Below are positions 21,589 through 25,482 of a DNA stretch of 47,472 nt, in pieces. The notes under the pieces are model-generated. The model saw only the letters and a list, made by a program, of their open reading frames with translations. It searched no databases and was not told the origin of the DNA. Positions within the stretch are counted from its first letter, which is position 1, and each line of letters starts with the position of its first letter. The position numbers and the translations under genes were made by a program. Origin of the DNA: a virus (Duplodnaviria > Heunggongvirae > Uroviricota > Caudoviricetes); IMG/VR virus record IMGVR_UViG_2698536559_000020. The stretch is one strand, 5' to 3'.

Positions 21589-22041
21589 GTGGGGATGGGG
21601 GTTATGAGGAGCATGGCAACTGATGATAAAAGCAGAAACGACTCCGCAGGGGGCAGATGATGCCGCAAAAATCATCGTGGTATGCCGGGGCATCAGACAT
21701 ATACTGACGCCAGTTGCATGGATTATTTGTACCGCACTGGTTGCATACACAACAATTTATTTAAACAGATGAGTACTGATTTTATTCGGGCAACGGCCTT
21801 TGCAATTCGCCTTGTGGCGATCGCTGTTCTGATTTGGGCTGTGCGTTGGTGGTGATATGACGCGAAAACACTGGACACACAGAATGCCGCGAACGGCGGC
21901 GAAATGGGCACTGGTAGCGATACTGGTGCCTTTTTTCCTGGTGAGTTGCGTCAGCCCGGACAGGGCGCGACTGCTGTTCCGTTTAAGTTTGAGTTGTCTC
22001 AACTGGTGGAGATGCGCATCAGTGATGAATGGGGGGGGGTT

Positions 22042-22707
22042 ATGGCTGATCTTAAAGATCTCAGCAGGCAGCTTCTGGGAGTGCAGAAGCAGGTGCGCTT
22101 TGCCACTGCGCGCGCCATCACTGCCACGGTGAGAAAAATTGAAGCGGCAGAGAAAGAAAACCTTCGCCGGAAGCTGGAGAATCCGACACCGTTCACAGTG
22201 AACTCGGTGCGCTCAAAAGGGGCGACAAAGGACAATCTGACCGGGCGGGTGTTCATCATGGATACCGCCGTGCCTTACCTTGAACCCTTTGAGGTGGGAG
22301 GGCTGCATTATCTCGGTGAGGGGCAGAAAGCTGTACTGAACCCGAAAAATATCCGGCTGAACAAATACGGCAACCTGCCAAAGGCAAAACTGCAACAGCT
22401 GAAGGCCAGACCGGATGTGTTCATCGGTAAGGTGATGAACAACGATGGTGAGGCCGTTGGTGGCGTCTGGCAGCGTAAGAAAGCGAAAAAAGTGGCAAAA
22501 ACCAGGAAGCGGAGAAAACGCTCTCCCAATGGCACACGCGCTCCCCGCAAAAAAAACCGTCCACCAAAGCTGTTGATACGTTTTGGTGATGCACTGCCGG
22601 TCACGCCGGTACTGGGTTATCAGGAACTGGCCCATGACATGGCATCGCGTCTCATGAAGACGGAGCTGAATGTGGCGCTTGAACAGGCTTTAAAGACGGC
22701 GAAGTGA
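22042..22707 (+). CDS. hypothetical basic protein (221 aa) upstream of terS
   Basis: ATG preceded by a G9 homopolymer acting as SD; Lys/Arg-rich segment (…KKAKKVAKTRKRRKR…). Confidence 0.45.
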   Translation: MADLKDLSRQLLGVQKQVRFATARAITATVRKIEAAEKENLRRKLENPTPFTVNSVRSKGATKDNLTGRVFIMDTAVPYLEPFEVGGLHYLGEGQKAVLNPKNIRLNKYGNLPKAKLQQLKARPDVFIGKVMNNDGEAVGGVWQRKKAKKVAKTRKRRKRSPNGTRAPRKKNRPPKLLIRFGDALPVTPVLGYQELAHDMASRLMKTELNVALEQALKTAK

Positions 22708-22810
22708 TGCAGACAGTACAGCAGGTGGGTAACGGGTCCTTCCTGAGCGGGTTATTGCACGGGCATTGCGCGAGCGCGGTGTTTCGCTAGCTATAAATTT
22801 TTGAAATTTG

Positions 22811-23165
22811 GGTAACAGGTAACAGAGGGTAACAGATGAATCAGGCGGAATTCGCAAAACTTCACGGTGTCAGCCGCAAGACGGTAACAGCGTGGAAGGC
22901 CCGTGGCTGGCTGGTTCTGGACGGTGAGGACATCGATGTTAATGCCTCAAACGAGCGGATCCGGCGTTACCGGAAAACTGTTACCCGAGCAAAAATTGAG
23001 CAAAAAGGTAACGCTTTGGGTAACAGGGTAACACCCGAAGGTAACAAAAAAACTGTTACCCGAACAAAAAACGAGCAAAAAGGTAACAGGGTAACACGCA
23101 AGGGTAACCGTTTGGGTAACAGGGTAGCACCTGAAGGTAACACTCCGGGTAACAACGAAGGTAAC
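22811..23165. repeat. array of about 17 GGTAAC(A) repeats upstream of and inside terS (candidate terminase recognition sites)
   Basis: three tandem GGTAACAG copies immediately before the terS ATG and many more within the gene, a few inverted; they encode the repeated GNRV/GN motifs in the protein. Confidence 0.6.
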
Positions 23166-23549
23166 AGCATTGCTCTGTACGATTACTCCCCTGATGTTTC
23201 GAAAGAAGCACGGGTTGAACAGTTCATTGCCAGCCACGGGGCCATGATGACCCTCGATGAAGCCAGAACCATGAAAGAGAACTATTTCGCGCTGCTGGCA
23301 AAACTCGAGTATGACGAAAAGAAAGGAACGCTGCTCCCGTGGAAGCATATGATTGATCGGGTGAGTAGTGAATATACCCGGATGAGGACGCGCCTTGTTG
23401 CCCTTGCGCCGGAGCATGGTCCTCGTCTGCGGGTGCTGGCGGGGATGACTGACGATCAGGGATTCACAGCAGCGTTGCAGGAACTGATTTACGAGGCGCT
23501 TAGTGAACTTGGAACTGATGACAGGGCATCCGCCGGAGATACAGTTTGA
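22836..23549 (+). CDS. terminase small subunit
   Basis: N-terminal HTH (…MNQAEFAKLHGVSRKTVTAWKARGW…), immediately upstream of and overlapping terL. Confidence 0.7.
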   Translation: MNQAEFAKLHGVSRKTVTAWKARGWLVLDGEDIDVNASNERIRRYRKTVTRAKIEQKGNALGNRVTPEGNKKTVTRTKNEQKGNRVTRKGNRLGNRVAPEGNTPGNNEGNSIALYDYSPDVSKEARVEQFIASHGAMMTLDEARTMKENYFALLAKLEYDEKKGTLLPWKHMIDRVSSEYTRMRTRLVALAPEHGPRLRVLAGMTDDQGFTAALQELIYEALSELGTDDRASAGDTV

Positions 23550-25482
23550 AGAGGCGCTGATCCTGGCGCGAGGATGTGCCGTTCCGGCCCCGCCGATGTC
23601 CTTAAGCCAGTGGGCCAACACCTTCGCTGTACTTTCCCGTGAGACCAGTGCCCAGACGGGGAAATTCCGCTCCTATCCCTATCAGGACGGCATGATGGAT
23701 GCCATCACAGACCCGTCGGTCACGTATGTGTCAGTGATGAAATCAGCCCGTGTGGGATACACGAAAATTCTTGACCATGCGGTGGGCTATTACCTGGCAC
23801 ATGATCCGTCCCCCATCCTGGTGGTTCAGCCGAGGGTGGAGGACGCCGAAGACTACAGTAAAACCGAAATTGCCCCGATGCTGCGCGACACGCCGGTGCT
23901 GGCAGCCATCAGCGGCGACCCGAAGGCAAAAAACAGCAACCAGACCATTCTTCGCAAAACCTTTTCCAACGGCGCAAACCTCACGCTGGTCGGGGCCAAC
24001 TCCCCCGGCGGGTTTCGCCGTATCACATGCCGCATCATCCTTTTTGATGAGGTGGACGGGTATCCGGCAGGGGGCGCAGGATCCGAAGGGGATCAGATTG
24101 CGCTGGGAACAAAACGTTCCGAAACCTTCTGGAACCGCAAGATTGTGCTCGGCTCCACGCCAACCGTGAAAGGCGTGAGCCGTATTGAAAAAGCCTGGCT
24201 GGAAAGCGATCAGCGCCGCTACTTCGTGCCCTGTCCTCAATGCGGGGAATATCAGGTGCTGGAGTGGGGCAGCAAAAGCACCCCTTACGGCATCAAGTGG
24301 GAAAAGGACAGCGAAGGAAACGGGCTGCCGGAGACCGCTTACTATCTGTGCCGCCACCACGGCTGTGTGATTGTGCACAGTGAACTGCCCGGGATGCTGG
24401 CAAAAGGCGAATGGCGTGCCGGTGCACCATTCAGGGGGCATGCCGGTTTTCATATCTGGACGGGATACAGTCCACACTCAAATGCTTCCTGGCCGAATCT
24501 GGTCGCCGAGTGGCTGAGGGTGAAGGACGATCCGCTGATGCGCCAGACATTCATCAACACCACGCTGGGCGAGCCTTACGAGGATGCAGGCGAGTTTGCG
24601 ATGAGTGAGCAGCGGCTGATCGCCCGCGTTGAGGTCTGGGGGGCGGAGGTGCCGCATGGCGTGCTCCTGCTCACCGCCGGGGTGGATACACAGGATGACC
24701 GCTTTGAAATCACCGTTCTCGGCTGGGGCATGAACGAAGAGTGCTGGGTGATTGCGCATGACGTGATTTTTGGTGACCTGGAAACAGAAGAGCCGTGGGA
24801 GCGCCTTGACGCGTATCTGAAACAGGTCTGGCGGCGGGCTGACGGTTTCGGGCTGACGGTTTCGGCAGTCTGTCATGACTCGGGCGGTCATCACACCAAC
24901 AAAGTGTACGAGTTCTCGAAGGCGCGTATCGGGCGTCGTATCTGGGCGACAAAAGGTGAGTCCGCCACTGGCGGCAAACGTAATCCCGTCTGGCCGACGC
25001 GTGTCGTTTCGTCCCGCAACCGGAAATCCTTCCGCCCCGTCATTCTGGGGGTGAACTCCGCGAAGGACGACATCAGGCACCGGCTGCATATTGAGCCGGA
25101 TCCGGCAGGCGCGCCGACCGCAGGCTGTATCCATTTTCCGTCGTTTCTGGATCTGCACTATTTCAGTCAGCTGCTCTCTGAGCGTCTGGTACGTAAGGAG
25201 AGCGGCGGGCAGGTGTACCGTGTCTGGGAGTTGTCTTCCGGGCGGGCGAATGAGGCGCTGGACTGCATGGTGTACGGTTACGCGGCCCTGAAGGGGCTGC
25301 TGCATCACGGCCTGAAACTGAACCGTCTGGCTGAACGGGCGGCGCAGGATCTGTCGTTTATGGCGCCGCCTCCCGCGCAGCCGGAAGAAAAAATCAGTTT
25401 AAGTATGCCGGGCGCAAAAGCACCGGAGACACCCCGTAAGAAAATACCGCTGCATATGAGGCTTGCAGGAGTGAGACGATGA
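23503..25482 (+). CDS. terminase large subunit (lambda gpA family); start may be at 23518
   Basis: …VKSARVGY.K.L…, …IL.DEVD…, …CP.CGE.Q.L.WG…, …FHIWT.YSP…, …NTTLGE.. match lambda A. Confidence 0.85.
   Translation: MNLELMTGHPPEIQFEEALILARGCAVPAPPMSLSQWANTFAVLSRETSAQTGKFRSYPYQDGMMDAITDPSVTYVSVMKSARVGYTKILDHAVGYYLAHDPSPILVVQPRVEDAEDYSKTEIAPMLRDTPVLAAISGDPKAKNSNQTILRKTFSNGANLTLVGANSPGGFRRITCRIILFDEVDGYPAGGAGSEGDQIALGTKRSETFWNRKIVLGSTPTVKGVSRIEKAWLESDQRRYFVPCPQCGEYQVLEWGSKSTPYGIKWEKDSEGNGLPETAYYLCRHHGCVIVHSELPGMLAKGEWRAGAPFRGHAGFHIWTGYSPHSNASWPNLVAEWLRVKDDPLMRQTFINTTLGEPYEDAGEFAMSEQRLIARVEVWGAEVPHGVLLLTAGVDTQDDRFEITVLGWGMNEECWVIAHDVIFGDLETEEPWERLDAYLKQVWRRADGFGLTVSAVCHDSGGHHTNKVYEFSKARIGRRIWATKGESATGGKRNPVWPTRVVSSRNRKSFRPVILGVNSAKDDIRHRLHIEPDPAGAPTAGCIHFPSFLDLHYFSQLLSERLVRKESGGQVYRVWELSSGRANEALDCMVYGYAALKGLLHHGLKLNRLAERAAQDLSFMAPPPAQPEEKISLSMPGAKAPETPRKKIPLHMRLAGVRR

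Follow-up and report, generated by a model that had tools for sequence, protein, structure and literature searches.

A GGTAACA array running into the small terminase gene as a probable split cosB at a lambda-like cos site

We analyzed a 47,472-nucleotide (nt) stretch of tailed-phage DNA (Caudoviricetes; IMG/VR record IMGVR_UViG_2698536559_000020), hereafter the window, in which the gene for the small terminase subunit, terS, is both preceded and occupied by a dense array of the 7-mer GGTAACA. These copies are probably the recognition elements of the small terminase protein (TerS) at a lambda-like cos site, with a cosB that is split into an R3-like triple in front of the gene and an accessory array inside it. 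An earlier note on this DNA had proposed a terminase recognition array analogous either to the R sites of cosB or to a pac site. The cosB half of that proposal was strengthened by the R3 position of the first copies, by the constraint on synonymous sites, and by the co-variation of the motif with the TerS lineage, while the pac half lost ground to the gpA-like, cos-type large terminase and to the 12-nt ends of a relative.

Results

Between positions 22811 and 23165, GGTAAC occurs exactly 18 times, 15 times forward and three times inverted (at 22966, 22980, and 23055), where the earlier note had counted about 17. The remaining 47.1 kilobases (kb) hold another 18 copies, giving an expectation of 0.14 per 355 base pairs (bp) and a Poisson P of ~3e-32, in agreement with the note's view that the array is not a product of chance. 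Over both strands of the whole window the hexamer totals 36, against a shuffle expectation of 14.5 ± 4.2, and none of 100 dinucleotide shuffles reached 36. The 7-mer GGTAACA has 15 of its 16 window copies within 22811–23166, with 3.8 expected in the entire 47 kb, and it is this 7-mer, not the hexamer, that forms the conserved core word. Two additional members are a degenerate GGTAGC at 23123 and a GGTAACG at 22728, the latter abutting the cosQ-like box described below. A scan of 22500–23400 with Rfam gave zero matches, so the repeats are not explained by a known RNA element.

Three forward copies of the 7-mer (starting at 22811, 22818, and 22828; 22811–22834, + strand) occupy bp 49–72 of the predicted mature genome and abut the terS start codon at 22836, with a Shine-Dalgarno-like AGAGGG situated between the second and the third. 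The other copies lie in the gene, a few of them inverted, which is the arrangement that the note had described. Two inverted copies (a hexamer at 22966–22971 and a 7-mer at 22979–22985; 22966–22985, − strand) are found at mature-genome bp 204–223, in an R2- or rR2-like position. They are followed by a distal forward array (23007–23166, + strand, mature-genome bp 245–404) composed of 12 GGTAAC(A) copies, the degenerate copy at 23123, and an inverted copy at 23054–23060; this array has an internal duplication and codes for that portion of the TerS linker which is rich in GN and RVT. The in-gene hexamers fall into four readings: GGT-AAC (Gly-Asn, nine copies), G-GTA-AC (Val-Thr within RVT or TVT, three copies), inverted GTT-ACC (Val-Thr, two copies), and, also inverted, a third frame within Arg-Tyr-Arg (one copy). 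The Gly-Asn readings correspond to the GN motifs that had been noticed in the middle of TerS. One isolated GGTAACA (22883–22889, + strand) lies in the recognition-helix codons for K-T-V-T; we discounted it because it is found in only about half of the relatives and coincides with a conserved KTVT peptide, and is probably a side effect of that peptide and not a site under selection.

The array stands immediately to the right of what appears, by homology, to be a lambda-like cosQ-cosN site served by a gpA-type large terminase. The TerS of the window (237 amino acids, 22836–23549, + strand; PHROG 57, E 1e-25) shares 52% identity with the TerS annotated in Citrobacter phage phiNP and in Serratia phage BZS1. 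The 12-nt ends of BZS1 have been determined with PhageTerm and by sequencing the virion ends in comparison with a polymerase chain reaction product across the prophage cos (PMC7556043), and its record opens with the annotated 12-nt cosL, GCATTGCGCGCC, 62 bp ahead of terS. Homology to this end predicts a 12-nt 5′ cohesive end (cosN), GCATTGCGCGAG, at 22763–22774 (+ strand) of the window, with 10 of the 12 overhang bases shared, together with the flanks. From this homologous placement, the first GGTAACA is bp 49 of the predicted mature chromosome (bp 48 in BZS1). A terS start at bp 74 leaves room for no more than the proximal sites ahead of the gene.

To the left of the predicted nick lies a cosQ-like box, GGGTCCTTCC (22734–22743, + strand), whose heptamer GGGTCCT (22734–22740) is 29 nt away from it; the corresponding distance is 31 nt in BZS1, and in lambda ACGGGTCCTT starts 30 nt left of the nick. 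To the right, the spacer between cosN and the first site, CGCGGTGTTTCGCTAGCTATAAATTTTTGAAATTTG (22775–22810, + strand), occupies the position of lambda I2 and matches lambda CGCGGGTTTTCGCTATTTATGAAAATTTT directly after the overhang. The pattern common to both phages there is CGCGG.TTTCGCTA..TAT.AAA.TTTT, while the overhangs themselves differ. A search for integration host factor (IHF) sites gave a single match with one mismatch, at 22794 on the minus strand, in the I2-equivalent spacer and not between the proximal and distal sites; this assignment is weak, and we claim no IHF site. The large terminase gene, terL (23503–25482, + strand), overlaps the end of terS and encodes a gpA-family protein (PF05876, E 1e-75; PF20454, E 1.7e-82), and a lambda-family portal gene comes after it. 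We rejected the pac reading because the large terminase (TerL) is of the cos-type gpA family and the ends of a relative have been mapped, BZS1 having unique 12-nt ends, with its first repeat 48 bp farther downstream.

Two variations were seen around the left side of the cos region. In Escherichia coli C8 (L008, NZ_CP010125), a moron-like insertion of ~630 bp with small open reading frames (1610–2255 of the locus, facing 22708–22727 of the window) sits between the upstream gene's stop codon and the GGTAAC-GGGTCC box, and it is present in four of the E. coli prophages of ~91% identity. In C8 the insertion stops just short of GGTAACGGGTCC, so that the conserved cos region has its left limit there. 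In three other loci (L031, L043, and L046), two or three extra GGTAAC copies are located left of cosQ (−124 to −146 from the ATG), in the would-be right end of the mature chromosome, where they possibly have a role in termination.

To follow the array through related phages, we scanned species-representative genomes and IMG/VR and gathered 77 distinct terS genes (75 of them full length; protein identity 0.50–1.0) from Escherichia, Citrobacter, Serratia, Erwinia, and IMG/VR contigs. A megablast of the region against GenBank phages returned nothing, and the relatives came only via protein search. Three complete E. coli genomes (2015C-4136CT1, 377323_2f, and EC12) contain an identical prophage, and in another five the identity is ~91%. 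Almost all relatives share one layout, with GGGTCC at about −105 from the ATG, CATTGCGCG at about −73, and GGTAAC at −27, −20, and −8. Over 70 distinct upstream regions, the conserved footprint comprises TGGGTCCtTCC, GGgCATTGCGCGC, and CTAGCTat.AacTTTTGAAATTTGGGTAACAggTaaCa...GGTAACA.ATG, the spacer block CTAGCTat.AacTTTTGAAATTT being kept. Inside the gene, an inverted copy at +144 (GTT-ACC, Val-Thr) is found in 74 of the 75 full-length relatives and another at +130 in a subset of them, and the in-frame array starts at +171 and has 4–7 copies spaced by 12 or 15 bp. The in-gene total is 15 in the window versus 4–9, typically 5–8, in the relatives. Relatives without the repeats, which the earlier note had named as evidence that would count against it, amount to a single full-length gene of the 75 that lacks in-gene copies, and this gene has an equivalent noncoding cluster instead.

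Some loci depart from the common layout. Eight (L053, L064, L067, L072, L074, L078, L079, and L082) encode a Photorhabdus/Xenorhabdus-like TerS, with the cohesive-end homologue 60 nt before the ATG and one proximal GGTAACA; this sub-family retains the inverted +144 copy and 3–4 in-gene copies. The terS genes of Erwinia tracheiphila (L006) and Erwinia tasmaniensis (L007) are truncated or frameshifted (124 and 91 amino acids), with the cos backbone and the repeats still recognisable, and probably belong to decaying prophages or reflect assembly errors.

Codon usage then allowed the DNA word to be separated from the peptide. Across the 75 full-length terS genes, linker Gly-Asn is written GGT-AAC in 380 of 383 pairs, and the following codon begins with A in 379 of 383. 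The codon alignment gives the same picture column by column, with GGT at the linker Gly positions in 71/71, 73/73, 74/74, and 67/69 sequences and AAC at the linker Asn positions in 70/72, 74/74, 73/73, and 67/68. Invariant residues outside the linker have mixed codons: G24 is GGC in 47 sequences, GGT in 19, GGG in 8, and GGA in 1, N2 is AAT in 34 and AAC in 41, and G164 uses all four Gly codons. The seventh base is constrained as well. Arg after a linker GN is encoded by AGA or AGG in 77 of 78 cases, versus 57 of 776 (7%) elsewhere in the same genes, and Ser by AGY in 26 of 26, versus 232 of 576 (40%). The base following the hexamer carries 2.0 bits in the noncoding copies and 1.9 bits in the coding ones, and the 7-mer logo is the same in both. 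Because of this bias at linker GN codons and at the next base, selection on the in-gene copies acts on a 7-bp DNA word, overriding codon preference, rather than on the peptide.

In Tatumella saanichensis (L005), TerS is intact, and its linker, KKATKKVPPSSKKSQEPGRSKKSRTRKQG, has neither Gly-Asn nor GGTAAC in its coding sequence. The cos region of this locus has the cosQ box, the cohesive-end homologue, and a triple at −253, −246, and −234 from the ATG. After ~120 bp free of copies comes a noncoding cluster of five forward GGTAAC and one inverted (−92 to −8) that ends at the ATG. The distal cluster has thus been retained at a similar copy number outside the gene.

The number of repeats is polymorphic. 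TerS alleles of E. coli range from 201 to 251 amino acids and differ by whole 33- or 75-bp units; one has five GNTLGNRVTPE repeats (a 33-bp unit with three hexamers each) and another has three 75-bp units that include an inverted copy. From these whole-unit differences, the array therefore grows and shrinks by unit duplication. The window sequence indicates one of the expanded alleles, with a recent internal duplication of 96 bp and a 33-bp period reported by Tandem Repeats Finder at 23082–23154, and a 205-residue E. coli allele (P0003) equals the window protein minus 32 residues.

The window TerS was modeled with AlphaFold2 from an alignment of 26 sequences. Residues 1–47 were predicted to form a winged helix-turn-helix (predicted local distance difference test (pLDDT) 81–86) with helices 3–10, 14–22, and 35–49 and a beta-hairpin, residues 48–118 a disordered linker (pLDDT ~31), and the C-terminal part a helical domain (pLDDT 50–77). 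The linker is the segment that the in-gene array encodes, and because of its predicted disorder the coding constraint there would be lax. The recognition-helix region, RKTVT.WKARG, is invariant across the TerS family. With hhalign, residues 2–46 aligned to residues 4–51 of gpNu1, its winged helix-turn-helix, at 29% identity (E 1.5e-4, probability 51%). No match to Phage_Nu1 (PF07471) was obtained for the window TerS even at E-values up to 10, in a run where lambda Nu1 itself scored 2.5e-100; by these profile comparisons the protein is not a member of that Pfam family and its similarity to the gpNu1 DNA-binding domain is remote. Foldseek of the model against the PDB found nothing significant (E >0.4), the nearest folds being MerR/excisionase-type winged helices (Pukovnik Xis, BldC, RdfS, RacA, and CueR), all with weak E-values, so that a kinship of the modeled domain to Xis/BldC/MerR-type proteins is suggestive only. 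Sequence searches against PDB chains gave chance matches only.

Motif and TerS lineage vary together. The TerS of Acetobacter phage phiAP1 is related to that of the window only in its C-terminal part and has a different N-terminal domain; the phage keeps GGGTCCTTCC and a related cos backbone. Abutting its start codon are a GGTTGCA and a TTGCAG half-copy, and three inverted and one forward GGTTGCA lie in linker codons in different frames, so that 5 of the 14 genomic GGTTGCA copies fall within 211 bp. As relatives 97–99% identical to the phiAP1 TerS are uninformative, we reached more distant ones by profile scan, and prophages with a TerS 57–60% identical to it keep the GGTTGCA layout, which encodes the peptides VQP/LQP. 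A third lineage (L107–L109) has yet another N-terminal domain, with (C)TTTGCA at −8 and a further two or three between +167 and +209 (peptides AKD/LQ); two of these loci have no TTTGCA in their 2.8 kb other than the four at those sites. By sequence comparison, three TerS DNA-binding domains would therefore be paired with three motifs (GGTAACA, GGTTGCA, and CTTTGCA) within one architecture, which we regard as supportive rather than conclusive.

A distant member was inspected by eye. In Bordetella phage PY223 (L092, 870–1131), ~190 bp of noncoding DNA with GAAAGCG-like repeats separate a cos-like backbone from the start codon, and the Pro/Gly-rich TerS linker has no embedded repeats. This locus appears to have a lambda-style, entirely noncoding cosB within the same broad TerS family.

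Discussion

We propose that the GGTAACA copies form a cosB in two parts. The proximal triple (bp 49–72) would play the part of R3 of lambda and N15 and position TerL, the nuclease that would nick cosN, on its substrate; as such it would be the critical site. The distal cluster (bp ~204–404), in which two or three inverted copies precede the forward array at a spacing of 8–13 bp, would act like R2/R1 of lambda or rR2 of N15 and raise efficiency without defining the cut, and it would sit in the one stretch of terS on which the encoded protein imposes little constraint. The protein bound there would be TerS, as its predicted winged helix-turn-helix suggests. The DNA-binding domains of an oligomeric TerS, carried on long flexible linkers, could occupy many 7-mers simultaneously, by a cooperative or looping geometry, which would give a high-avidity, cooperative recognition of viral DNA and keep the terminase attached to the left end of the chromosome once it has been nicked.

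The closest precedent is phage N15, studied by the Feiss laboratory, in which R3 at bp 48–59 is "positioned similarly to R3-lambda" and rR2, a remote inverted copy within the TerS gene (bp 249–260), is a non-essential accessory site (PMC4669245). Like N15, the window has a predicted lambda-like cos, a gpA-type TerL, a putative proximal TerS site near bp ~48–59, and an opposite-orientation copy ~200 bp distal inside the TerS gene. N15, however, has its 12-bp R sequence once near cosN and once remotely, whereas the 7-mer of the window is present three times proximally and 15 times in the gene, in an array that is mostly forward, in frame with Gly-Asn codons, and polymorphic in copy number; the cohesive-end sequence differs as well. 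With lambda the window shares the order of cosQ (~30 nt left of the nick), cosN, an I2-like spacer, and a first site, putatively for TerS, at bp ~50, a forward/inverted/forward pattern that echoes R3/R2/R1, and an N-terminal winged helix-turn-helix (predicted in the window) in TerS. In lambda, by contrast, the ~190 bp before the Nu1 start (bp 191) contain the whole of a noncoding cosB, made up of three 16-bp R sites plus a strong IHF site, while in the window terS starts at bp 74, most sites are coding, and no convincing I1-type IHF site was found.

In phage P1, the pac site consists of seven TGATCA/G hexamers inside pacA, the TerS gene (PMC10028697). The likeness is a cluster of short hexamers embedded in a small-terminase gene and serving, in the window probably, as the terminase recognition site. 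An IHF site has been described for P1. P1, however, is a headful packager, and its hexamers have Dam GATC sites that gate cleavage, whereas the window is of the cos type, with 12-nt ends in a relative, a motif without GATC, and a predicted cut upstream of the gene rather than between repeat clusters. Other small-terminase genes known to contain a terminase site are those of P22, Sf6, and SPP1, with their pac sites. The iterons of the lambda origin lie inside gene O, where a protein's own binding sites are in the coding region of its inter-domain linker; this is an analogy of design only, between a replication initiator with its origin and a terminase, and gene O has no homology to the window TerS. 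Small MerR-like proteins of the BldC/Xis type, the nearest, if statistically weak, structural matches of the TerS N-terminus, bind direct repeats head-to-tail, and by analogy a BldC-like cooperative multimerisation is a plausible model for occupying an array spaced by 12 bp, although these proteins act in transcription or as recombination directionality factors and are not terminases.

Among other explanations, we give most credence to a different binding protein, then to a role other than initiation, and least to a protein repeat. Under the first, the sites are real at the DNA level but are bound by a host nucleoid or bending protein, or by another phage factor organising cos. Such a protein is conceivable, as the same 7-mer in iteron-like arrays near replication-type genes of unrelated contigs means that other proteins can read the word, and as lineage confounds the link between the motif and the TerS DNA-binding domain. 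We nevertheless consider it unlikely: the sites are at the exact R3 position of lambda and N15 and travel with terS through mosaic prophages of many genera, TerS has a confidently predicted winged helix-turn-helix whose invariant recognition-helix region would match the invariant motif, and a change of motif among three phage lineages that keep the cos backbone would be unexpected for a host factor. There is also a small chance that only the triple is the packaging site and that the in-gene array was selected for another purpose, such as termination or processivity at the downstream cos or autoregulation of the late operon by TerS. The dispensability of N15 rR2 for plaque formation, the overlap of the triple with the terS ribosome-binding site, the copies on the terminating side of cosQ (in L031, L043, and L046, and the GGTAACG at 22728 of the window), and the Photorhabdus/Xenorhabdus-type relatives, which keep the array with proximal sites down to one, would all fit with this. 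It accounts less well for a motif that is identical in the proximal and in-gene compartments and for a Tatumella distal cluster of similar copy number when outside the gene.

The remaining alternative is that the repeats are a feature of the protein, a Gly-Asn-rich linker generated by replication slippage, with the identity of the DNA resulting from recent duplication or concerted evolution. The predicted disorder of the linker, the recent 96-bp duplication of the window allele, and the whole 33- or 75-bp units by which E. coli alleles differ are what it would predict. Yet GN is written with the same codons across genera whose proteins have diverged by 50%, even as spacer codons and those of other invariant Gly and Asn residues drift, the seventh base forces AGR and AGY codons that are used for 7% of Arg and 40% of Ser elsewhere in terS, and the same 7-mer occurs in the upstream noncoding DNA and in other frames and orientations. 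Moreover, Tatumella kept the DNA cluster without GN, and the motifs of the other lineages encode different peptides (VQP/LQP and AKD/LQ). The codon tests, the Tatumella locus, and the other-lineage motifs effectively exclude a pure protein-repeat or slippage origin, to which we assign a very low probability.

Several points weigh against the split cosB that we favor. Since rR2, its closest precedent, is not essential in N15, the in-gene array might contribute little to packaging, and because a spacing of 8–13 bp would crowd winged-helix domains, not all copies may be occupied at once. The matches of the DNA-binding domain are weak (Foldseek E >0.4; hhalign probability 51%). GGTAACA is not specific to terminases, since it forms iteron-like clusters in unrelated elements. 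The co-variation between motif and DNA-binding domain is only supportive because in the second and third lineages there are no more than 3–6 copies per locus and the motifs were picked after inspection, and it is confounded, as whole phage lineages differ.

A broader and more doubtful idea is that the split cosB reflects a general design rule of the TerS family, in which the segment coding for the disordered linker stores the protein's own distal sites, with three motifs in three lineages. Each unit would then add one site and ~4 linker residues, and the polymorphism would tune packaging efficiency or specificity. If so, any gain or loss of units would change in step how many sites there are and how far the tethered DNA-binding domains can reach.

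Terminase sites inside terS are already known; what differs here is a 7-mer repeated up to 19 times at a cos-type site, the constraint on synonymous sites, the polymorphic copy number, and the recurrence in other lineages. Full-text literature searches found no paper linking GGTAAC to terminase or cos, the BZS1 paper makes no mention of repeats or cosB, and the word terminase is absent from the phiNP papers. If our reading is correct, it defines cosB for a widespread and essentially unstudied group of Enterobacterales phages and prophages (BZS1, phiNP, and hundreds of prophages). The array would also be among the cleanest natural examples of dual coding, with a DNA word held at synonymous sites and forcing AGA/AGG Arg codons, and its regular 7-mers at ~12-bp spacing would make a defined substrate for a long-standing question, the way in which an oligomeric small terminase engages DNA (wrapping, looping, or filament-like). 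On the practical side, the fragment 22734–23166 may be a minimal packaging signal usable in cosmid or transduction tools with these phages, and the motif could be a quick marker of the cos site in related prophages.

Additional observations

The 7-mer was also encountered outside this phage group. In unrelated IMG/VR contigs (L179, L169, L188, L221, L224, L130, and L176), 8–11 GGTAACA copies are found per ~300 bp of intergenic DNA. Several of these arrays are inverted doublets flanking A/T-rich stretches (for example, L188, L221, and L176), and the cluster of L130 is just downstream of an open reading frame resembling a P-loop Rep or primase. Their sequence context suggests arrays of iterons or operators in other elements that use the same word. 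An exact 14-mer scan of IMG/VR for GGTAACAGGTAACA gave mostly chance matches and iteron-like arrays, with no obvious terS-less cos satellite among the matches listed.

The protein search found 433 TerS relatives in Enterobacterales, none with a Pfam domain. NCBI and UniRef label most of the TerS relatives (P0002–P0120) "RNA polymerase subunit sigma-70", apparently by systematic mis-annotation. Finally, the gene directly upstream of cos (21904–22707 of the window) matches PHROG 1924, "minor tail protein" (E 3e-52), and is located apart from the tail genes; the authors of the BZS1 study observed that the position of this gene upstream of terS is conserved in distant phages.

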